From: Candidatus Cloacimonadota bacterium
GTDB taxonomy: Bacteria > Cloacimonadota > Cloacimonadia > Cloacimonadales > Cloacimonadaceae
Assembly: GCA_022711455.1 (NCBI GenBank)
Contig: JAKLEY010000001.1
Coordinates: 1 to 50,014, forward strand
Direction: 5' to 3'
DNA length: 50,014 nt
Shown piece after piece: positions 1,856 to 43,170 of the stretch (its first letter is position 1; every line of letters starts with the position of its first letter). The notes under the pieces are model-generated. The model saw only the letters and a program-made list of their open reading frames with translations. It was not told where the DNA came from and ran no database searches. A program made the position numbers and the translations under genes.

Positions 1856-4800
1856 TTACTCATCACTTATAACTCGAAGTTCCAGCAGCGGATAGGCCCA
1901 TTCCTGTCTGATCTCTTCTTCCGTGAAGATCATGAAGATGGGAGGCAGCCACTGCTTCTCCCGGAGGGTAATTTCACTCCAGAACTGAGTTCGGCTGCGC
2001 ATAAGCTTGGGATCCATGTGGATATAATAATTGAATTTACTGGTATGCAAGAGGTTGAGCCGGGAAGCCGAACCAAACTGCGAGATCTCGATTTGACGGA
2101 AGCTATCCTGGATATGCAGGGCTTCATTGTTGATCCGGTAGCTGTGCCAAGCACCCTGTTCGGAGGGAACTCGCATCCGCCAATCATCCACAGGTGCTTC
2201 CGGATGGAAGAAACAGCTTAGGTGGAAGCTCTGATATTCGGCTTTCCCTGTGCCTTGCTCGATCCGGGTAAAAATTACCAGCAGTGGCAAGCCGGGGAGC
2301 GTCATATAGTATTGGGTGAATCTCAAACCCTTGGCTGCCTCACTTCTGGTGATCAAGCTACTGCAGGATAGCCCCTTCCAGGTCTGTCCCCACTGATCTT
2401 TGACCTCTGCGGATTGCAGCTGGTGTTCCTCCTCAAAGAAAGCACTCATCCGCACAAAGGCAGGATTGATCCCAATACCACCGGGATACGGATTGTAGGA
2501 GGATTTGGGACCGTAGACAGGATATGATCGATCCAGCCATTCCCGGTCCTGATACTTGAGTGAGATCAAGCCCGGTAGCTTGGCATCCTCCGCTGCACTA
2601 AAACTGATAAGCCCATTATCCACAGTATGTTTGACCCCCTGCCTGATCTGTGAAACCTTGCCCCCGGGGGAGAACACGAGCTGTTTGCGCTCTGCGATTG
2701 TGGTGGGGAGAACGGCTTCGCAGGTGATGATCTCTAAAGCCTGGGGAGAGGTCTGCTCCAAATTCCAGCTGATCTGGCGTATATCTTCCTGCAGATCAAA
2801 GCTTTGGCTTTGCTTTGGGAAGGATGGCGCGCTGAGGCTGAAGCTACCCCGGAGGGCTGTATCCAGATGCTGGATGAGCTGAGCTTCAAACTTGTTGACC
2901 ACAAAGGGATTAGACTTGTTGATCACCAGTTCTAAGCTGGGGTATTGAGGCACTGCCCGTTGCCAGGTTTTAGTTGCAAAATCACGCAGTTGATAAGCAT
3001 TCTTGAAGATATCCACCAGCAGCAGCACGGGCTTAGTTTCCATGGTTCCGGATGCTTGCAGGGCAGTCAGATTGTGCTCCCAAACCATCCCCCATTCCTC
3101 GATCACGACTTTCCGGGCAGGGTCCCAGACCAGTCCGTAGTAGGCATCATCGTCTTTGGCAAAAATCCAATTCTCACCGATCGCGTCCACCGGCAATTCA
3201 CCCAGTCCCAGATCCGGCAAATCCTGTTCCAGCCTTAATATTCTTCCATTTTGAGCGAAACTGAGCGCAGACTGGCTTATGCTAACTTTTTGTTTGAGCC
3301 AGATATCGTCTTCGGTATCAGGGACTTTCAGGATTCTGATGCTATATTCCAGCATACCGGTGGGATAGAGCGTGTATACTCGTGCGAATTCCAAACCGGG
3401 GATTTCGCGGGAGTGGTAGACGCTGAGCAGTTGATTTGCCTGGCCCAGCTCTGTAAATATATATTCCACCGGTGCTTCCGAGAGAAACTCTTCGCTGTAG
3501 GGCTTTCCCACCAGGCAGGGTTGCAAGCCAAAGCCATTGTTGTTGAATACCCGGAAGGAGCCCCAATTGGAGTAGATCTTACGGTTGAAGGAAACCATGC
3601 TCAAACCGTTGATCAGTAACACATATTCACGGGTAAGCCTTTGATCCCTGCCCTGGGGTGAATTGATGATCAGGGTTACGGGTTTGCCAAATTTTAGCTC
3701 CGGCAATCCATCCGGTTTGGCACGGACCCTGATCTCGGGTTCATAAACGCAAGCCCCGCTGATGCTTAGGTAGAGTGACAGAAAAGAGCTTTCCCCTGCC
3801 TGCAAGCGGATGCTGTGCTTAGCTCCTCTCAGCTTAACTGTCTGTATCTCATCCAGTTCGATCTGATAATCACAGGCCACCGGAAAGTTGTTTCTCAGGT
3901 TCAGATAGACGGTCTGTTCGCGTCCGGGATAGCCGAGGGATTGGGTGTTGCGCAGCTCCAGATCCAGGGGATACTGGATCTTGAGTCCACACTTGAGTTC
4001 AATGCTTTTCCCATCCAGACAGAAGCTGCTTTTCACCCCGGGATAAGTCTTCCATTCCGAGTTATCTTCATCCGGAGGATCGAGGTGAAAGCGCGAGTAG
4101 GCAAGGGTTTTCCCTTTCAACCTGAGGCTTTGATCCAGAGTATGCAAGACATTTTTATCGTCTCTTCCGCTCAGAAAGACGTTTCTGCTGCTTTCCCCCT
4201 TGATATCTATCTCGTAGTCTATGTCATAGCTTGCGCCAAAGACAGGCTTGGGGGTTTTGATATGGGTGGAGACTTCAAAATCGGGGCTGCGAAGACAGAA
4301 CAGACCTCTGCCAAAGCGCTCGATGCTGATCGCGAGCTGCCGTCCGTCTTTTTCCCAGAGATAATCGAAGAGCTCAAAACCATTCTCATCCCGTCCGTCC
4401 GGCTCCACAGAGAGATCCCGAACCTGATCTTCATACCAGTGAAATTCCTCAAAATATGGTTTTAGGAGCTCATTATTCAGCAAACCGGGCAGGAAATTCA
4501 TCAGATGAGTGTTTTGAGAATCCATTTTCTCCCAGAAAAAGCCGCATTTCTTGTATAAAGGCACCGCTTTGGTGTTCCCGGCCCAGGTGAAAAGATCCAG
4601 ACGCTGATAACCCAGTTCCGTGGCTCGCAGCACGCATTTCTGCATCAGGTCACGCCCCACTCCTTTGCCATGCCAGAGCGGATCGACATTGAGCAGCTCC
4701 ACATCAGCCACGCCTTTTTCCATAATGTATTCAGCCAGTTTGGCATAACCGATTACCTGCTCATCCGCAATTGCAAGATAGAGATGGAGATAGCCTCCAT

Positions 4801-5147: not shown

Positions 5148-5197
5148 GCCCTAATCCCTAATCCCTAATCCCTAATCCCTGGTCCCTAATTCCTAAC
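5148..5197. repeat. Degenerate heptamer microsatellite (CCCTAAT)n
   Basis: ccctaatccctaatccctaatccctggtccctaattcctaa, about 55 nt downstream of the stop of the 5253-5981 gene. Confidence 0.9.
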
Positions 5198-5981: not shown

Positions 5982-6023
5982 GATCACTCCTCATTTTCTC
6001 TGATGATATACTAATGCAATCCA

Positions 6024-6136
6024 TGTAGTGTCGCGCTCTGATGCGACGATAAATCACAAACTCAGTTCTATGTAGTGTCGCACTCCGATGCGACAACGAG
6101 CTGTGCAGTTAGTTCGGAACGGAGTCCGAACCTACA
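6024..6136. repeat. REP-like cluster (three GTAG-headed hairpins)
   Basis: TGTAGTGTCGCgctctgaTGCGAC at 6024-6048, TGTAGTGTCGCActccgaTGCGACA at 6071-6095, and GTTCGGAacggagTCCGAACCTACA at 6112-6136 in the opposite orientation. Confidence 0.85.
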
Positions 6137-8180: not shown

Positions 8181-9014
8181 ATGAGAAAGATCAAACTGAT
8201 AAAATCGACCTCAGCCACCATCGACGGAGCGGGAGTGCATTTGCAGAAAGCCTTTGGCTATCACGAAACCGCACTCTTCGATCCCTTTCTGATGCTGGAC
8301 GACTTTCGCAACGACAGACCGGAAGATTATCTGCCGGGTTTCCCCTGGCATCCGCACCGGGGTATAGAGACCATCACCTATATGCTGGAAGGCTTTGCCG
8401 AACACGGAGACAGCATGGGCAACAAAGGTGTTTTGGGCAAAGGCGACGTGCAATGGATGACCGCCGGCTCCGGAATCATTCATCAGGAAATGATGCGTCC
8501 GGGCGAAAAGGGCAGAATGTATGGCTTTCAGCTCTGGTCCAATCTTCCCGCTTCGCACAAGATGATGCCGCCCCGTTATCAGGATATCAAAGCTGCAAAG
8601 ATCCCGACCGTGAAAGACCCTCAGGGCGCGGAAGTCCGGTTGATCTGCGGAACATATCTGGGTCAGGAAGGCCCTGTGAAGGATATCATCACCGATCCCG
8701 TGTATCTGGATTTCCGCTGCGAACCCAAGCGTAAGCTCACCATTCCCACGCATTTGGGGCACACCTGCTTCATCTATTGCTATGGAGGGCAGGGCTTTAT
8801 CGATGGCAAATCTGTCGTGAACCGTCAGGTCGTGCTCTTTGAAGACGGGGACAGCCTCGAACTCGAAAGCGGTGACAAGGGTTTTGATTTCATCTTCCTC
8901 ACCGGAAAGCCCCTGCACGAGCCGATTTCCTGGCGCGGACCGATCGTGATGAATACAGCCGATGAGATCAAACAAGCCTTCCGGGAACTGGACAACGATA
9001 CGTTCATCAAGTGA
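8181..9014 (+). CDS. pirin-family protein (bicupin)
   Basis: 277 aa. The metal-binding cupin motif HPHRGIETITYMLEG...H is characteristic of pirin/YhhW. Confidence 0.9.
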   Translation: MRKIKLIKSTSATIDGAGVHLQKAFGYHETALFDPFLMLDDFRNDRPEDYLPGFPWHPHRGIETITYMLEGFAEHGDSMGNKGVLGKGDVQWMTAGSGIIHQEMMRPGEKGRMYGFQLWSNLPASHKMMPPRYQDIKAAKIPTVKDPQGAEVRLICGTYLGQEGPVKDIITDPVYLDFRCEPKRKLTIPTHLGHTCFIYCYGGQGFIDGKSVVNRQVVLFEDGDSLELESGDKGFDFIFLTGKPLHEPISWRGPIVMNTADEIKQAFRELDNDTFIK

Positions 9015-9047
9015 GTTAATGGGTTAATAAGTTAATGGGTTAATGAG
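9015..9047. repeat. Period-8 word microsatellite (GTTAATGG/GTTAATAA)
   Basis: gttaatgggttaataagttaatgggttaatgag starts immediately after the pirin stop. It carries TAA in all three forward frames. Confidence 0.9.
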
Positions 9048-9068
9048 TGACGGGGTTCCCCCCGTCAC
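9047..9068. terminator. GC-rich hairpin between convergent pirin and tfoX-like genes (candidate bidirectional terminator)
   Basis: GTGACGGGG-ttcc-CCCCGTCAC with a 9-bp stem. There is no clear U-run on either side. Confidence 0.5.
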
Positions 9069-14556: not shown

Positions 14557-14874
14557 GGTTCCTCCAGTTTAGTAAACGCTTCTGTCTCGGAACTGGATTG
14601 ATTAGTTCCGGAGCGTTTCAAACAAAAAGGAGGAATAAATCAGGGATTTGCGGACAGAGAGGTATTTTCTCCGTGGATGGCATTGGATTCTGGCATAGAT
14701 TCTTCCTCTGAACTGCTGTTTTTTTATCTTGTTAACAAGACCAATAACTCTGCCATGCTTGATTTTAACCATGCAGAGACGAACAACGGGGTCAGGAAAG
14801 CAGGAAAGGGGATTGTTGTCCAGATATTTTTTTGGGTTAACAGGTTAATAAGTTAATGGGTTAATAGTGAGCTT

Positions 14875-14980
14875 GTACCGGCGCTCGCTGTAGCGCCGTT
14901 GTTTCGGTAGTATGGGTAGTGTCGCACTCCGATGCGACAGCAGCACTGCACCCTTGGTTCGGATCGGAGTCCGAACCTAC
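14875..14980. repeat. REP-like cluster (three hairpin families)
   Basis: GTACCGGCGCTcgctgtAGCGCCG at 14875-14898, GTAGTGTCGCActccgaTGCGACA at 14916-14939, and GTTCGGAtcggagTCCGAACCTAC at 14957-14980. Confidence 0.85.
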
Positions 14981-16180: not shown

Positions 16181-16320
16181 CGGCGCTACTGCGAGCACAG
16201 ATACACTAAATCCCTGTATCCCTGAAACCCTGTACCCCTGAACAAAAAAGGGCGCTACAGCGAGCGCCCGTACAAGGTCACCATTAACTTATTAACCTAT
16301 TAACTCATTAACTTACTAAC
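16181..16320. repeat. REP-like hairpins plus two word microsatellites (CCCTGNA and TTAAC words)
   Basis: cggcgctactgcgagc at 16181-16196 (degenerate), tccctgtatccctgaaaccctgtacccctgaac at 16211-16243, GGCGCTacagcgAGCGCCcgtac at 16251-16273, and ccattaacttattaacctattaactcattaacttactaac at 16281-16320. Confidence 0.8.
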
Positions 16321-17029: not shown

Positions 17030-17244
17030 CTTGAACTCCTTATAGTTAAATCAGTATTGCAAGTTAATTCAGCTTTGATTCAGATGTCAAGCAGAAAAGA
17101 CGGTTTTTGGCTTGGTCGACGGGAGTGCGTGGAGATTTGTCCACATTTGTGGATTGCAGGGCTTTGCCCCTGCCGGGAATGAAGAGAGTTCTCACACAAG
17201 GGGACGAAGCCCTGTGGTCCGGTGGACACATGCCGAATCGGAAT

Positions 17245-18585
17245 TCAGCATCCCGGAGAGGGCGCTACGGCGAGCGCCGCTACTCCTGCAGCTCCTGCTT
17301 CCATAAAGATCTCGGAGACGGTGGGATGCGCATGCACGGTCTTGGCGAGGTCATAGATCGTGCCTTCCAATTCCAGCATCAATCCTGCTTCCGCGATCAT
17401 ATCCGTGGCATTTTCGGCAATGATCTGAACTCCCAAAACCTGTTTATATTTGGGTTCAAAGAGCAGACGGATAAAGCCCTCGGCAGTTCCTTCCGCGAGC
17501 GCTTTGCCATTGGCAGTGAGCGGAAATTCCTGGCTCTGATAATCCTGTCCGGAGGCTTTCAGTTCACGTTCCGTTTGCCCCACCTGAGCTATTTCGGGTT
17601 TGCTGTAGATGTTTATGGGGATCTGCGCGTCGCTGTATCCACCCTCTTTTCCCTGGAGATGATCCACCATTGCAAGTCCCTGTGCTGAAGCGGCATGGGC
17701 CAAATAGCTTCTGCCGTTCACGTCTCCGATGGCATAGATGCCGGGAACCGAAGTTTGCAGATCAGCATCGGTTTTGATGAAGCCGTTGTGCAGTTCCAGC
17801 GTCACCTTGCTTTCAGGCAAAGTTGCAGCCCGGAAGCCGGCATTGATGATGCCGTCCTGTTCCAGTTCCTTATCCTGATGGATCAATTTGCCGTTGCTGT
17901 AGGTCACCTCGCTTTCCGGCAGGACCTGAATCTTGTCTTTCTTGAGCTTGCGCTCGATCCAGGTGTTCAGATGATCGTCCAATTGCGGCACCAGCGGCAG
18001 TTTGGGAGTAACGATAATGGGTTTGCGGTCCAGCAGATCGAACATCTGAGCCAGTTCCAGAGCCACGGAGCCGCGTCCCCAGATCACGGGTTTGGAGGGC
18101 AGGAGCTCAAGCTGCAAGAGGTCTTCGAGCTCGATCGCGCCCTGGGGTCCGGGCAGAGGTTTGCTGCCGGTCGCAATGGCAATGGCTTTGGTCTCAAAGA
18201 TCTGGTTATTGGCAGAAACCGTGGTGGGAGAAAGGATCGAGGCTTCGGCGGAGAGGAAATCCACTCCGTTCTTTTTCCAGAGGAATTCAATGCCTTTGCT
18301 GAGCCGGCTGACCACACCCTGAGTGCGGGTCACAGCTTGTTTCCAGTCGAATCCCAGCTCTTCGGGAGCGATCCCGGTGATGCCAAAAGCGGAGGCAGTC
18401 TTGACCGTGCGATAGGTTTTGGCGCTTTCGATCAGGGCTTTGGTGGGGATGCAGCCCCAATTCAGGCACATCCCACCCACATACTTTTTATCGATGACCA
18501 GGGTCTTGAGCCCGGTCTGTCCGGCACGGATGGCAGAGACGTAACCCGCAGGGCCGCTGCCGATTATGATCAGATCATAAGTCAA
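17245..18585 (-). CDS. lpdA: dihydrolipoyl dehydrogenase (E3)
   Basis: FAD fold GSGPAGY, redox disulfide GGMCLNWGCIPTK and C-terminal HAHPT motif. TTG start at 18585 overlaps the E2 stop (TTGA) with GGGAGG upstream. The last ~12 codons are encoded by a REP-like hairpin. Confidence 0.9.
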   Translation of the reverse strand: MTYDLIIIGSGPAGYVSAIRAGQTGLKTLVIDKKYVGGMCLNWGCIPTKALIESAKTYRTVKTASAFGITGIAPEELGFDWKQAVTRTQGVVSRLSKGIEFLWKKNGVDFLSAEASILSPTTVSANNQIFETKAIAIATGSKPLPGPQGAIELEDLLQLELLPSKPVIWGRGSVALELAQMFDLLDRKPIIVTPKLPLVPQLDDHLNTWIERKLKKDKIQVLPESEVTYSNGKLIHQDKELEQDGIINAGFRAATLPESKVTLELHNGFIKTDADLQTSVPGIYAIGDVNGRSYLAHAASAQGLAMVDHLQGKEGGYSDAQIPINIYSKPEIAQVGQTERELKASGQDYQSQEFPLTANGKALAEGTAEGFIRLLFEPKYKQVLGVQIIAENATDMIAEAGLMLELEGTIYDLAKTVHAHPTVSEIFMEAGAAGVAALAVAPSPGC

Positions 18586-22061: not shown

Positions 22062-22110
22062 TACTAAAATGATAGGCGGTCTTGTAAATGAGGCAAATCT
22101 TTTTTTTAAT

Positions 22111-22134
22111 GTACCGGCGCTCGCCGTAGCGCCG
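22111..22134. repeat. REP-like hairpin (GTAC-CGGCGCT family)
   Basis: GTACCGGCGCTcgccgtAGCGCCG, between the radical SAM gene and the pdh promoter. Confidence 0.8.
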
Positions 22135-22151
22135 AGCTTGTCATGTTGCGC

Positions 22152-23490: not shown

Positions 23491-23510
23491 GCAGGGGGTT
23501 AGTGGTTTAC

Positions 23511-23748
23511 TGTAGTGTCGCACTCTGATGCGACGAACATGCTGTACGGGCGCTCGCCGTAGCGCCCAGCCCGGCTAACACAAACAGATTATGAGATAGG
23601 CGGTAAAGCGACCGCCTATACACTTAGTTCGGATCGGAGTCCGAACCTACGGTGGGGGATCGGCGCTTCAGCGAGCGCCGGTACGACTAAACCCCTGAAC
23701 CCCTATACCCCTGAACCCCATTTCAGCAGGATCGGCATCCTGCTCTAC
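23511..23748. repeat. Dense REP/BIME-like cluster (six hairpins, five families, mixed orientation)
   Basis: Hairpins at 23511-23535 (GTAG-TGTCGCA), 23544-23567 (GTAC-GGGCGCT), 23596-23619 (ATAGGCGGtaaagcgaCCGCCTAT), 23627-23650 (GTTCGGA...CCTAC), 23661-23684 (CGGCGCT...GGTAC) and 23724-23748 (CAGCAGGATcggcATCCTGCTCTAC, overlapping the GNAT stop codon). Confidence 0.9.
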
Positions 23749-28448: not shown

Positions 28449-28465
28449 GGATACTCCTTAAAATA

Positions 28466-28555
28466 GTGATGAGTGATGAGTTATGAGTGATGGGAGGAGT
28501 GAAAAGTGACGAGTGAAGCGTCAGCACGCATCACTCATTACTCTTTACTCATCAC
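28466..28555. repeat. Inverted pair of GTGATGA-word microsatellites (long imperfect hairpin)
   Basis: gtgatgagtgatgagttatgagtgatggg at 28466-28494 and catcactcattactctttactcatcac at 28529-28555, between the adaptor stop and the ATPase start. Confidence 0.8.
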
Positions 28556-36118: not shown

Positions 36119-36240
36119 GCTCGTAACATAGGATTTATCCTGTTGTAATCGAGGTTTCAACCTCGTAATGCCATTGATTGAGAACACTCAAAAAGCGCGG
36201 AAAAAACGGAAAAATTGAACAAAGCAATGGAAAGTGAAGT

Positions 36241-40019: not shown

Positions 40020-40117
40020 TTCCTCACTTCTCGCTTTGATCCCCCTGCCATCTCACTTCATGAAGCGGTTTGAAAGCGGTCAGCAAGCGGTTAGCAAGCT
40101 GTTAGATAGCGGTAGGA
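40020..40117 (-). repeat. CCGCT-word / G-rich dispersed element, copy 4 (reverse orientation)
   Basis: The reverse complement reads ctaccgctatctaacagcttgctaaccgcttgctgaccgctttcaaaccgcttc followed by gagatggcaggggga. Confidence 0.8.
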
Positions 40118-40308
40118 CCAAAGGGGATTGCAGGACTATGTCCCTGCCGGGTATGAGTGAGGTTCAGAGTCGTGTGGGGAGATAGAACGCAGATAACAGG
40201 ATCGACTGGATCAGCCGGATTCTTTTAATAACACGAATTCACACGAATTTCCACTAATTGTCACGAATAGCCACGAATCTCCACGTATAACGATGAACAG
40301 CCTGATAT

Positions 40309-40518
40309 GTCCCGTAGGGACTTCACGTTATTAGCGCCGGGTTTCAACCCGGCGATTGTTTCGTTATGTTCTACAGAGTCCCGTAGGGACGACACATAGT
40401 ATTGGCCAACAAACACATATGCTGAGATGTGTCGTCCCTACGGGACTTGGAATTTACGTGCGGCCTGCTTCCGCCGGATTGAAATCCGTCGCTAATAACG
40501 TGAAAGTCCCTACGGGAC
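40309..40518 (+). repeat. Nested-palindrome element A (~210 bp, no ORF)
   Basis: GTCCCGTAGGGAC occurs at 40309 and 40378. Its mirror form GTCCCTACGGGAC occurs near 40433 and at 40506. The arms ACGTTATTAGCG and CGCTAATAACGT pair. The central stem GTCCCGTAGGGACGACACAT / ATGTGTCGTCCCTACGGGAC is a perfect 20 bp. Confidence 0.9.
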
Positions 40519-40526
40519 TAAGTGGC

Positions 40527-42635
40527 TCACAGCGTCAAACTGATCTTGGCATAGATGGTTGCCATATCTTTGCGGAAGTGACCCAGCGGATCAGGCCAGG
40601 AGGAGGGTTCATCCTGTTTTTGGGCAGATTTGAAGCCCAGGAAGAGGAAGTATTCCGGTTTGAATTCATAGCGCAGATTGCCGTAGTAAGTGAGGCTGGA
40701 TCTGATGCTGCCGCTCTCATAGGTGCTCAGTCCGCTGCCCAAACTGAGCTTGAACACCGGGCTGGGGGTATAACCCAAAGTCGCATTGGCGATCACATAA
40801 GTCTTATCCAGCTTGATCGTTACGGGCCCGATCACGTTCTCCTCAGGATAGCCATAATGATTCCAGGAACCGGTGAGGGTGGTGGAGACGTTTTTGAGCG
40901 GACTGAACCAGCCGTTGATGTTAAAAGTATGTTTGGGATAGGTATCCGAGAGGGCATAGACCAGGCTTTGGGCATAGGAATAGGCTCCAAAGACACGCAG
41001 GCTGCGCAGTTTTGCCCAGGTGCAGCCCAGCATCCCGTTGTAGATGTCATGCAGATCATCATGAAGATCGGGCACTTGGGCAGAACTTCCATTGAAGAGA
41101 AAGTTTAATCTGGGAGCGGTGTTCAGGTTCGCTGTAAATCCTGATTCATAGGCATAATAGGGCTCTGTGCTCAGATTTTTATGATAGCCGTAGGCCCAGG
41201 TGTTGAAAGACAGATAGCGGATCTGTTTATCCGCATAGGTTTTGCTCCAGCCGATTCCGGAGCCGGCATATTCATAATCGGTCTCATAGAGGTATCCGGC
41301 TTCCTGCGTGAGGTTTTTGGAAAGACGGGCATAGCCCAAAGAAAGATTCCAGTCTTTGGGGTCCGCGCTCAGTTTGAAGGCTGTTTTGGAGCCTGTGGTC
41401 AGATCCGTAATACCAACGGAAGGGTGTTTCAGGGTCGAGAGATCCAGGGAAGTGGTGAAATAGAGATGGGGCAGAAACTCCCAGTTCAGGACCCCGCTGT
41501 AGACGTGGTTGTAATATCCGCTGTTGACCCGGCTGGTGATCGCGTTGCCCAGCTGCAGTTTACGCCAGGAGGGGTTCAGAGCCAGCACCTGATAATAGTC
41601 ATCCCGGTTGATCAAAACGCCATCGTCGCGGATCTCTTTGTCAAAGGCTCCCAGGACACCCCAATTCAGGATTTTGGTGTTTCCGGTGGCTTTGAAAGCC
41701 AAGCGCGGTTGCACAATATTGCGGGAATAAAACACGTCTTCACTCACTCCGAAAGCCTCAATATCCTCTGTGAAGAAAAAGCGGTTTTCCTCGTAGTAAG
41801 GAGGGTCTTTGCGGTTGTAATCATCCTGCGCGCTGTCCATGGGGACGTCTGAGTAATCCGGATTGAGCGAGATCTTGATGCGGGTGCGCTGTCCCGGATT
41901 GAGGGCGAGATCGAGTCCGAAGTGTTCCGGATCGTAGCTTCCGCTGCGGCTGATGAGGTCGTAACTCTTCACAAAATAAGGCTTTAGCGAGATATCCAAT
42001 TTGTGCTTCACGGGCTGGGTCAGCACGATATCCTGCGCTTTCAGAAAATATTCCTTGCCCTGATTGGTGTTGGAATAGGGCAGGCTGAAGAATTCCTGGC
42101 TCTGATAGTGATAGCGGGTGAGGATGACTTTCCAGTTGTAGGGCTTGTCTTGCTTGAACCGCAATTCATCCAGAGGGATTCGCATGGTCACTTTCCACAG
42201 CTCTCCGGAGACCTCACTTGTATAGGAATAATGGCTGTCCCAGGCGTAATCGACGTCCATATCGGTTTTGCGAACTCCGTCCAGCAGGTTGCCCAGGGGA
42301 TAAGCGCTGTAGTAATAGGCATAGTAAGCATCGGGGATGGTGATCAATTGCAGCCTCAGATAATCGGCACTGGCTCCTTCATCTTTCACGGAGAGATCAC
42401 CCCGGGTGAAGGAGGAATCGATCACGGCTTCAAAATGCACGATCAGATTGTCGCCATCTTGCCACAACCAGGCTTTGGTCTGCAAAGTTTCCTGCTTTTT
42501 ATCATCGGGATCGACCCGTACAAAGCCGGAGAGCAGGTTCGCGTCCGTGAGCGTTTCCGTTGCGGATACGGGTAAAACAAGGGCAGCGCAATTCATGAAT
42601 ATAACGCTGAACAGCACAATTAGACAAGCTTTCAT
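40527..42635 (-). CDS. Outer-membrane protein with N-terminal CBM9/DOMON-like domain and C-terminal beta-barrel (DUF5916-like)
   Basis: GAGGT RBS and a signal peptide. The N-terminal pattern ...WLWQDGDNLIVHFEA...DYLRLQLI...WDSHYSY...WKVTMRIPLDELRF resembles the CBM9-like region of DUF5916 proteins. The rest is rich in alternating aromatic and Gly beta-strands. Confidence 0.6.
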   Translation of the reverse strand: MKACLIVLFSVIFMNCAALVLPVSATETLTDANLLSGFVRVDPDDKKQETLQTKAWLWQDGDNLIVHFEAVIDSSFTRGDLSVKDEGASADYLRLQLITIPDAYYAYYYSAYPLGNLLDGVRKTDMDVDYAWDSHYSYTSEVSGELWKVTMRIPLDELRFKQDKPYNWKVILTRYHYQSQEFFSLPYSNTNQGKEYFLKAQDIVLTQPVKHKLDISLKPYFVKSYDLISRSGSYDPEHFGLDLALNPGQRTRIKISLNPDYSDVPMDSAQDDYNRKDPPYYEENRFFFTEDIEAFGVSEDVFYSRNIVQPRLAFKATGNTKILNWGVLGAFDKEIRDDGVLINRDDYYQVLALNPSWRKLQLGNAITSRVNSGYYNHVYSGVLNWEFLPHLYFTTSLDLSTLKHPSVGITDLTTGSKTAFKLSADPKDWNLSLGYARLSKNLTQEAGYLYETDYEYAGSGIGWSKTYADKQIRYLSFNTWAYGYHKNLSTEPYYAYESGFTANLNTAPRLNFLFNGSSAQVPDLHDDLHDIYNGMLGCTWAKLRSLRVFGAYSYAQSLVYALSDTYPKHTFNINGWFSPLKNVSTTLTGSWNHYGYPEENVIGPVTIKLDKTYVIANATLGYTPSPVFKLSLGSGLSTYESGSIRSSLTYYGNLRYEFKPEYFLFLGFKSAQKQDEPSSWPDPLGHFRKDMATIYAKISLTL

Positions 42636-42758
42636 AGTTTTTACCTCATACTAGATCGGGACTTCTTTCCGGATCAATTTTAAATTTGAATCATTACATT
42701 ATGGGGGGGGATTGTCAAGCAATATTTTAAAGTGGTGAAGGGGTGCAGGGGTGTAGTC

Positions 42759-42813
42759 AGTGGTGGAGTGGTGGAGTGGTCAAGTGATGGAGTGCTGGGG
42801 TGGTGGAGTGGTG
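42759..42813. repeat. Period-8 word microsatellite (GGTGGAGT)n
   Basis: agtggtggagtggtggagtggtcaagtgatggagtgctggggtggtggagtggtg. The preceding GGGGTGCAGGGGTGTAGTC (42743-42761) recurs in reverse complement at 8084-8102. Confidence 0.85.
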
Positions 42814-42861
42814 TTGCAACCCGCTCAATGGTACAGCAGTATCGATGTGACGTTTTACCAA

Positions 42862-43070
42862 GTCTCGTAGAGACGACACGTTATTAGCGCCGGATTTTAA
42901 TCCGGCGTGTGTCACGCACAATCAGAATTGAGTCCCGTAGGGACGACACATACCATTGCGGGACAAGATCATAAATGCCATGTGCCGTCCCTAAAGGGAC
43001 TTGGATCATACACGTGTTTCCTTTCGCCGGGTTAAAACCCGTCGCTAATAACGTGCCGTCTCTGCGAGAC
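42862..43070 (+). repeat. Nested-palindrome element B (~209 bp), same orientation as A
   Basis: It has the same architecture as A. The outer 13-mers are GTCTCGTAGAGAC and GTCTCTGCGAGAC, and the local hairpins are CCGGATTTTAATCCGG and CCGGGTTAAAACCCG. Confidence 0.9.
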
Positions 43071-43075
43071 TCCTC

Positions 43076-43170
43076 AAAACCCGAAAACTCCAAAACTCCA
43101 AAACGTTGGAACTCCAAAACGTTAAAACGCTAAAACGTTACAACGCTAAAACGACAAATCGCCAAAATCC
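43076..43170. repeat. Period-8 word microsatellite (AAAACTCC / AAAACGTT), about 11 units
   Basis: aaaacccg aaaactcc aaaactcc aaaacgtt ggaactcc aaaacgtt aaaacgct aaaacgtt acaacgct aaaacgac aaatcgcc aaaatcc. Confidence 0.9.

Follow-up and report, generated by a model that had tools for sequence, protein, structure and literature searches.

Two gene-less palindromic elements of a Cloacimonadota genome and their relationship to the repeats of an IS200-like Y1 transposase

The first 50,014 nucleotides of contig JAKLEY010000001.1 from Candidatus Cloacimonadota bacterium (assembly GCA_022711455.1; this whole stretch is hereafter the window) carry two gene-less palindromic elements, A and B, on either side of an outer-membrane protein gene. 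We found that A and B are homologous to repeats flanking the gene of a Y1 transposase (HUH, IS200-like) in the same lineage. They are very probably non-autonomous, gene-less derivatives of such a transposase element, whose closest analogues are doublets of repetitive extragenic palindromes (REPs), i.e. REPINs or bacterial interspersed mosaic elements (BIMEs), or miniature inverted-repeat transposable elements (MITEs). An oversized REP- or MITE-type element was among the identities proposed in the first-pass annotation of the window, and the presence of the same units around the Y1 gene bears this out.

Relatives of A and B around a Y1 transposase gene in Cloacimonadota

A metagenome scan with a lineage-specific pattern recovered a single contig (L121), which shares with the window the FlgD_ig/Por_Secre_tail genes of the type IX secretion system (T9SS) and 8-nt tandem repeats. 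This contig encodes a Y1_Tnp (HUH) transposase of 149 amino acids (PF01797, E = 7e-28). The gene is flanked by inverted half-elements with a TTAGCG-CGGGTTTnAACCCGG hairpin nearly identical to that of A and B, and beyond it lies a tandem array of five 72-nt units. We built a covariance model (R1) from seven L121 units only and searched the window with filters off. Exactly four full units were detected, i.e. the outer arms of A and B (54.1-65.2 bits, E <= 3e-13), plus partial matches at the inner 13-mers and nothing else in the 50 kb. In addition, the run CAAACACATAT in the central loop of A is similar to L121 5590-5605.

The protein closest to the L121 transposase (P0121, 87% identical) is annotated at NCBI as an IS200/IS605 family transposase of Ca. 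Cloacimonadota and is encoded on contigs L127-L131. In L127, 4-5 tandem units precede the Y1 gene; behind it come a complete copy of the A/B type without a gene (4350-4556, 207 nt) and a truncated one. The inner right boundary of the complete copy, TCAATGTGCC-GTCCCTATGGGAC, is the sequence that directly follows the Y1 stop codon, as expected of the remnant of an internal gene deletion. Another Cloacimonadota locus (L132) has an A/B-like element right behind its Y1 gene. More generally, the gene-bearing copies (L121, L127, L068, L115, L136) present one unit and an inner 13-mer-GACAC on each side, inverted, around a gene of about 450 bp. A and B have exactly this arrangement but with a loop of 24-30 nt in place of the gene, and therefore look like internal-deletion copies. 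The first-pass annotation had left room for A and B being the only two copies. With a third full copy in L127, the tandem arrays and the wide distribution of the core sequence described below, they belong instead to a family of transposase-associated repeats.

The head-to-tail arrays (4-5 units with a 72-nt period) adjoin the Y1 gene at L121 4420-4790 (minus strand) and L127 3479-3739. A CRISPR-like reading of the L121 array, with a repeat of 47 nt and a "spacer" of 25 nt, was rejected, given that its "spacers" are related sequences, that units are found in inverted orientation as well and that a transposase gene directly adjoins the array. Contigs L127-L131 all end inside these repeats, which suggests that the repeats probably break assemblies.

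Recomputation confirmed the coordinates of the elements, their 13-mers, their arms and the perfect 20-bp central stem of A (40378-40397 against 40427-40446) as first annotated (Table 1). From the outside inward, each arm contains a hairpin with a 5-bp stem and a 3-nt loop (GTCCC-GTA-GGGAC), a linker ((GA)CACGTTAT), TAG-CG with an 8-bp hairpin (CCGGGT-TTCA-ACCCGG), a spacer of about 25 nt, and a second 13-mer followed by GACACAT. The repeat unit is bipartite, with about 47 nt plus the 25-nt spacer, a linker of the form G-ACAC-nTTAT and a (G/T)TAG-footed hairpin of 7-8 bp. The 13-mer GTCCCGTAGGGAC lies at 40309 and 40378 on the plus strand, at 40434 and 40506 on the minus strand and also at 42932, and a form with two mismatches (GTCTCGTAGAGAC) lies at 42862; allowing up to two mismatches, the window has 7 matches vs. 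0.72 expected. The 12-mer arms ACGTTATTAGCG and their complement CGCTAATAACGT are located at 40325, 40490, 42878 and 43043.

Table 1. Features of elements A and B in the window (R1, covariance model of the L121 units).
Feature	Position	Strand	Description
Element A	40309-40518	.	210 nt; two inverted half-elements forming a nested palindrome without a gene
A left outer unit	40309-40354	+	GTCCC-GTA-GGGAC, linker TTCACGTTAT, TAG-CG-[CCGGGT TTCA ACCCGG]-CG; R1 65.2 bits, E = 2.5e-16; folds as DNA at -14.4 kcal/mol with both hairpins formed
A left inner 13-mer + GACACAT	40378-40397	+	holds the conserved 18-mer core GTCCCGTAGGGACGACAC
A central loop	40398-40426	.	29 nt; site of the Y1 transposase gene in gene-bearing copies (comparison with L121 and L127)
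A right inner ATGTGTC + 13-mer	40427-40446	-	mirror of 40378-40397
A right outer unit	40472-40518	-	R1 54.1 bits, E = 2.7e-13
Element B	42862-43070	.	209 nt; architecture like that of A, in direct orientation relative to A
B left outer unit	42862-42907	+	13-mer GTCTC-GTA-GAGAC, hairpin CCGGATTTTAATCCGG; R1 58.2 bits
B left inner 13-mer + GACACAT	42932-42951	+	
B right inner ATGTGCC + 14-mer	42980-43000	-	14-mer GTCCCTAAAGGGAC, loop longer by one base; R1 partial match, 18.7 bits
B right outer unit	43025-43070	-	R1 60.4 bits

Each element folds as a single long hairpin with its units on opposite strands; the minimum free energies as RNA are -131.9 kcal/mol for A (z = -15.6) and -112.6 kcal/mol for B (z = -13.0), relative to shuffled sequence. 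As single-stranded DNA (ssDNA), the outer units form exactly the two hairpins each (-10.2 to -14.4 kcal/mol, z = -2.8 to -5.1 against shuffles). The local hairpins and the arms pair as first annotated, but between the left and the right half as a whole complementarity reaches only about 70% (78 of 111 positions in A, 74 of 108 in B), the spacers are unpaired and the central stem of B has one uncompensated mismatch (ATGTGCC against GACACAT). The "nested palindrome" is therefore better understood as repeat units that are arranged in inverted orientation and each form local hairpins of their own. Two further statements of the annotation needed correction. Elements without any open reading frame (ORF) were described; there is indeed no credible gene, but mechanical ORFs of 51-77 aa overlap both elements. 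The GTAG said to precede the central palindrome is in fact located inside each 13-mer (CC-GTAG-GG). All four arms of the window carry TTAG at the foot of the large hairpin, and GTAG (L016, L046, L011, L107) or TTAG/CAG is found there in relatives; TAG is conserved and the first G is variable. No target-site duplication was found at A or B, as is expected of Y1 elements.

Conservation of the unit, RF01687 and the class of the transposase

Aligned directly with short flanks, A and B show 83% identity. The 72 positions in the stems of the six local hairpins show 8 differences, all of them in four compensated pairs (4/10 and 201/207, CG to TA; 33/40, GC to AT; 170/177, AT to GC) and none uncompensated; 45 of the 138 non-stem positions differ. 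The paired character of the A/B differences, noticed at first pass, was therefore confirmed, and the suggestion that the hairpins are under constraint beyond sequence is backed by covariation across the family. Units from Cloacimonadota alone vary little, with 3 covarying pairs, and among them the two pairs first noticed are seen only in the window. For the wider family, MAFFT alignments of the units (A2, A3) placed the loop gap wrongly, and a covariance-model alignment of 49 units from many phyla was used instead. In this alignment, 97.5% of cells are paired vs. 78.1% in shuffled alignments, 10 of 13 pairs show changes on both sides, and the covariation score is 0.480 vs. 0.144 for shuffles (0/500 as high) and <=0.082 in slid controls, figures that are somewhat inflated because the alignment was fitted to the structure, although its rows look sensible by eye.

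We screened one genome per GTDB species for the 18-mer core GTCCCGTAGGGACGACAC and extracted loci of 8 kb each (L001-L120). The core was found in at least 120 loci, vs. about 17 by chance according to our own estimate, and these loci span at least eight phyla. Among the matches listed, the majority are from Acidobacteriota, and several metagenome-assembled genomes (MAGs) give 3-5 separate loci each. Further hosts include Desulfobacteraceae, Ignavibacteriaceae/Melioribacteraceae, Planctomycetota, Puniceicoccales/Chthoniobacterales, Bacteroidota, Marinimicrobia, Magasanikbacteria and others. Next to the 18-mer stands a (G/T)TAG-footed hairpin whose sequence varies, in most loci upstream of it and in others, such as those of Desulfobacteraceae, just downstream, so that the whole module is conserved and not the 18-mer alone. 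No match to the 18-mer was found in viral contigs, and element A had no match in plasmids and phages by blastn in distant mode; a plasmid or phage vector is therefore without evidence.

A Y1 gene is present in 12 of the 120 listed loci, mostly abutting the 18-mer, and well below one locus would be expected by chance. ORFs of 140-160 aa of the Y1_Tnp/IS200-like type (PF01797, E = 1e-20 to 1e-27) lie right behind the 18-mer in L039, L040, L068, L077, L093 and L115. In five of these (L068, L039, L040, L115 and L077), the gene stands between mirror-image half-elements with the architecture of the A/B arms: outer small hairpin, TAG-hairpin, spacer, inner 13-mer-GACAC, gene, then the reverse. A Y1 gene flanked by inverted copies of its own repeat was observed in L121, L127-L131, L068, L115, L040, L077 and L136. 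The gene copy number is apparently low, and the repeats far outnumber the Y1 gene.

Five further Y1 loci (L132-L136) were chosen by protein and not by motif, and all five lie within arrays of small hairpins of this type. Three of them (L132, L133, L134) contain the literal GTCCC..GGGAC hairpin or near-variants. In Algoriphagus (L133), GTCCCGTCAGGGAC hairpins are found in 270-bp repeats that flank the Y1 gene on both sides. In Salinimicrobium (L134), the upstream side has 105-nt units in tandem, which contain GTCCCTTTAGGGAC, and the downstream side has inverted units of 56 nt that contain GTCCCTACGGGAC. The layout in Chloracidobacterium (L135) is alike, with different stems (GTGTGC-GGA-GCACAC ... 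TAG-CTACACGT), and the Planctomycetales locus (L136) carries a 13-mer variant, GTCGC-GAA-GCGAC-GACAG.

Two observations stand beside these results. The 18-mer is identical across at least eight phyla while the associated Y1 proteins are about 40-57% identical, i.e. the DNA motif is more conserved than the protein, which is unusual for REPs; a strict recognition constraint or a recent horizontal spread are both possible. In a Rikenellaceae MAG (L093 2100-2530, viewed on the minus strand), the last ~60 nt of the Y1 gene and the downstream hairpins are duplicated in tandem after the gene, which suggests a repeat-mediated local duplication.

The unit is related to an existing Rfam family, RF01687 (Acido-Lenti-1). 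The consensus of this family is the unit read on the opposite strand: a hairpin, CUA, about 9 nt, GUNCC-UAC-GGNAC and U. Relatives carrying the 18-mer score 37.2-62.4 bits with RF01687, and 12 of 18 loci with the 18-mer have matches at 37-55 bits. Above-threshold matches form mirror-image pairs around the Y1 gene in L068, L115, L040 and L136, the last with six such matches in inverted pairs. On element A, the scores are 28.1, 24.3 (left outer unit, minus strand) and 15.9 bits (right outer unit, plus strand), below the gathering score of 37. The units of the window are thus diverged members of RF01687 by architecture, not by the Rfam threshold. The first reading had recognised no Rfam family; a related one exists, although the window itself stays below its gathering score, and at gathering thresholds the whole window yields only a tRNA. 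Matches to miRNA families at an E-value threshold were set aside as generic long-hairpin matches. Acido-Lenti-1 was described from Acidobacteria and Lentisphaerae with 89 representatives, covaries, is sometimes near group II introns, and was rated a probable RNA on this covariation (Weinberg et al. 2010, PMC2864571). The Rfam entry is filed as a small RNA (sRNA) gene; the architecture is the same as that of the A/B unit, but what we see here is a two-stranded, transposase-associated DNA repeat. In the literature searched, we found no paper with the 13-mer and none tying Acido-Lenti-1 to a transposase. On balance, we lean towards the view that the Acido-Lenti-1 "sRNA" is the DNA recognition repeat (a bipartite REP) of an IS200-like Y1 subclass, 1.2, and that together they form a distinct and very widespread class of REPtron, whose 18-nt core is kept exactly across phyla and whose transposases have diverged to about 40-50% identity.

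The Y1 proteins of the relatives (~148 aa) carry DHVH, WQ and Y-I-x-N-Q-x-E-H-H, and their HuH (DHVH) and tyrosine (YIQNQ) motifs align with those of the ISDra2 and IS608 TnpA proteins. The nearest solved structures are the TnpA of ISDra2 (2XM3), Sulfolobus and IS608 (2A6M). With the IS200/IS605 model NF033573 (cutoff 55), the Niabella protein (L077) scores 73.6 bits and the Terriglobales protein (L068) 49.2 bits, below the cutoff; with the REP_Tyr_transpos model NF047646, the Niabella protein scores 21 bits vs. a cutoff of 80. These motifs and the length match those of subclass 1.2 (DH[IV]H, WQ, Y---Q--HH, ~148 aa; Quentin et al. 2018, PMC6006769). According to the same study (PMC6006769), subclass 1.2 is low-copy, occurs for the most part in Cyanobacteria and Bacteroidetes, lacks typical IS200 ends and is listed with "REP: no".

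Besides RF01687, three known systems are close to A and B. With REP/REPIN systems and their REP-associated tyrosine transposases (RAYTs), known as REPtrons (E. coli TnpA-REP with REP/BIME, Pseudomonas REPINs), they share short hairpins between genes, with a 5' foot conserved in its TAG, doublets of inverted repeats folding as one long hairpin, covarying stems, the lack of target-site duplication, and a Y1 HUH gene flanked by inverted copies of its own repeat, with clusters or tandem arrays beside it. They differ in that the unit is bipartite, with an extra, highly conserved 5-bp/3-nt hairpin and GACAC, and in that each half contains one and a half units, giving a doublet of ~210 nt vs. ~70-110 nt. 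Moreover, the foot in this lineage is TTAG, the transposase is IS200-like (subclass 1.2) rather than a class-2 RAYT, and while classical REPs are specific to a species, the 18-nt core is the same from phylum to phylum. The IS200/IS605 elements and their gene-less derivatives (palindrome-associated transposable elements, PATEs, and MITEs) have the closest protein relatives, and likewise show hairpin-based ends, gene-less internal-deletion copies and no target-site duplication; but their ends are asymmetric, with left and right hairpins on the same strand, whereas the flanks are mirror images in L068, L115, L121, L127 and L136 and in A and B. Finally, the TIRYT genes or "TIRtrons" are also Y1 genes within long, partly self-complementary terminal inverted repeats (TIRs), and these TIRs are dispersed as dimers or clusters too, with examples in Acidobacteria (Di Nocera et al. 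2013, PMC3733652). Unlike our units, TIRs share GGGGWSAS, and neither this motif nor the protein subclass was found here; published TIRYT proteins belong to subclasses other than 1.2, namely 2.1, 2.2 and 2.5 (Quentin et al. 2018, PMC6006769), and a TIRYT identity was rejected.

The bracketed gene and the other repeats of the window

The outer-membrane gene between A and B lies on the minus strand and encodes a protein of 702 aa. Element A starts 8 nt past its stop codon, and B is located between this gene and a divergent flavodoxin/Fer4 gene, upstream of both predicted promoter regions; the two copies share no RNA context. The protein has at least 135 homologues across Cloacimonadota (35-91% identity), in records named Cloacimonetes, Syntrophosphaera or Cloacimonadaceae. 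The gene is thus a conserved core gene and not cargo. The locus of the 91%-identical orthologue (L123) has no element A behind the stop codon, and that of the 79%-identical one (L124) has neither A nor B. In L125 and L126, the outer-membrane gene is overlapped by its downstream neighbour; the unit model has no match in any of these orthologous loci (L123-L126). No clean empty site could be defined in them because the flanking intergenic DNA is rearranged. A functional link between the elements and the gene that they bracket did not hold up: this is a core gene whose closest orthologous loci lack the elements. The integron-attC or composite-transposon reading was rejected on the same two grounds.

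Other repeats are abundant in the window. Almost every intergenic region contains short tandem repeats with a period of 7, 8, 10 or 11 nt (e.g. AGTGGTGG, CAAAACGC, CACGAATnnC, AACCGCTTTCA), at sites including 1736-1778, 5149-5196, 9014-9057, 16210-16320, 28465-28516, 40063-40113, 40231-40289, 42759-42813 and 43075-43167. The same types occur in L121, L123 and L124, and in the window they are found on the outer sides of A and B. An intergenic repeat of Cloacimonadota, ATAGAACGCAGATrAnnGGATCGACTGG..., is present at 40183-40225 as a single arm beside A; in L123 (2262-2400) and L121 (~4040-3860, minus strand), it forms an inverted pair around tandem repeats of 8 to 10 nt. A 32-nt repeat with a small hairpin inside (GGATTGCAGGnCTnTGnCCCTGC..., family D13) occurs in three copies (1633-1664, 17151-17182, 40125-40156), one of them ~150 nt from A.

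Canonical GTAG-footed small hairpins of several families, direct and inverted, are located at 1430-1623, 6020-6136, 14874-14980, 16249-16273, 17259-17283, 22110-22137 and 23507-23684 (e.g. TGTAGGTTCGGA..TCCGAAC, GTAGTGTCGCAC..GCGAC, GGGCGCTACAGCGAGCGCCC-GTAC), and 1430-1597 holds a tandem duplication of 84 nt. Their sequences appear unrelated to those of A and B; they resemble ordinary REPs, from one or more further families, and a transposase for them is not in the window. The lone hairpin at 36150-36165 (CGAGGTTTCAACCTCG, 31 nt past the stop codon of a 614-aa ORF) had been noted at first pass for its core; apart from this core, GGTTTCAACC, it has nothing in common with the large hairpin of A, and the unit model gives it 6.3 bits (E = 2.8), which does not support membership of the family. 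It may be a terminator-like or decayed solo hairpin.

Alternative explanations, proposed mechanism and significance

Several points weigh against a transposase-dependent origin of A and B. Just two elements, i.e. four full units, are visible in the window, and the Y1 gene was seen in contigs of relatives, while none is present in the 50-kb window (tblastn with four Y1 proteins, best E = 0.14), which confirms the absence of a transposase stated at first pass. The foot is TTAG, and the canonical foot is GTAG; by its motifs and profile scores, the transposase is IS200-like and not a classical RAYT; and in the judgement of the Rfam curators the unit is probably RNA. The comparison of orthologues may also fit a deletion instead of an insertion. 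Finally, compensated changes in palindromes can arise without selection, via hairpin-templated repair or arm-to-arm conversion. Such non-selective events are harder to reconcile with the cross-phylum covariation than with the four events of the window.

Three other explanations were considered. The elements could be kept mainly by a host function, whatever their origin, as in the REP/BIME of E. coli, through transcription termination, protection of mRNA 3' ends, or binding of nucleoid proteins or gyrase. The position of A, 8 nt past a stop codon with a very stable 3' hairpin, would suit such a role, as would the many family members in short intergenic regions by highly expressed genes (EF-Tu, ribosomal protein genes, iscU). 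But B lies outside any 3' untranslated region (UTR), no T-run follows A on the transcribed strand, orthologues at 79-91% identity do without the elements, and the association with a transposase is left unexplained. We therefore regard a host function as unlikely to be what maintains them; as a secondary effect it is compatible with transposase-derived elements, and A, which would be transcribed together with the outer-membrane gene as part of its 3' UTR, may have the side effect of stabilising or terminating this mRNA. The Rfam reading of Acido-Lenti-1, in which the unit is a structured small RNA or a cis-acting RNA and A and B are loci expressing it, is in our opinion very unlikely. Units are equally many on both strands of each element, form mirror-image pairs around the transposase gene and also tandem arrays, and have unrelated housekeeping genes as neighbours in either orientation; B is upstream of the predicted promoter regions of both its neighbours, and the absence from the closest orthologous loci shows that these are not conserved regulators of these genes. 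All this stands against the above-threshold RF01687 scores of relatives (below threshold on A), the strong covariation, the rating of the motif as a probable RNA by Weinberg et al. 2010 (PMC2864571) and the fact that A would be transcribed within the outer-membrane 3' UTR. Least credible of all, and highly improbable, is that A and B delimit a composite or cassette unit carrying the outer-membrane gene (as a pair of integron-attC-like or other recombination sites) or represent a simple local duplication. Two copies in direct orientation do bracket one gene, but this is a core gene, with at least 135 Cloacimonadota orthologues; the elements are missing from orthologous loci, the downstream gene overlaps it in two of them (L125, L126), further copies exist elsewhere, and no integrase or recombinase gene stands beside A or B.

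For A and B as gene-less derivatives of a Y1 element, we infer mobilisation in trans, an active form of ssDNA and an origin by deletion. The biochemistry of the IS608 and ISDra2 TnpA proteins and of E. coli TnpA-REP is the established basis for the mechanism proposed here. By analogy with these enzymes, the local hairpins would extrude when the DNA is single-stranded, e.g. on the lagging-strand template, and a Y1 transposase encoded elsewhere in the genome would recognise them, cleave the ssDNA and rejoin it. The element would be copied or moved in this way to intergenic sites without target-site duplication. Such an enzyme would read the shape of the hairpin and a few fixed bases, and only compensated stem changes would survive; the paired differences between A and B would follow from this. 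The elements most likely act as folded ssDNA, since the transposase association and the two-strand symmetry favour ssDNA over RNA.

The two palindromes are thereby explained as ordinary in kind: most probably they are transposase-dependent hairpin repeats, and neither a new RNA nor a cassette system. Within this kind, what is new is the bipartite unit, its association with an IS200-like subclass-1.2 transposase and the identity with the Rfam "sRNA" motif; as far as the literature searched goes, this is also the first description in Cloacimonadota. The REPtron-like organisation is extended to an IS200-like subclass reported without REPs, and to this phylum. The bipartite unit, with its unusually invariant 18-nt core, is also a good substrate for studying ssDNA recognition and cutting by this Y1 subclass. 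In practice, repeats of this kind probably break metagenome assemblies, and they can be mis-annotated as sRNAs. If the proposed identity of Acido-Lenti-1 is true, this orphan Rfam family gains a concrete and testable identity as a DNA repeat tied to a Y1 transposase, and the candidate class, with its exact 18-nt core, would span Acidobacteriota, Planctomycetota, Bacteroidota, Cloacimonadota, Desulfobacteraceae, Ignavibacteriaceae/Melioribacteraceae and others.

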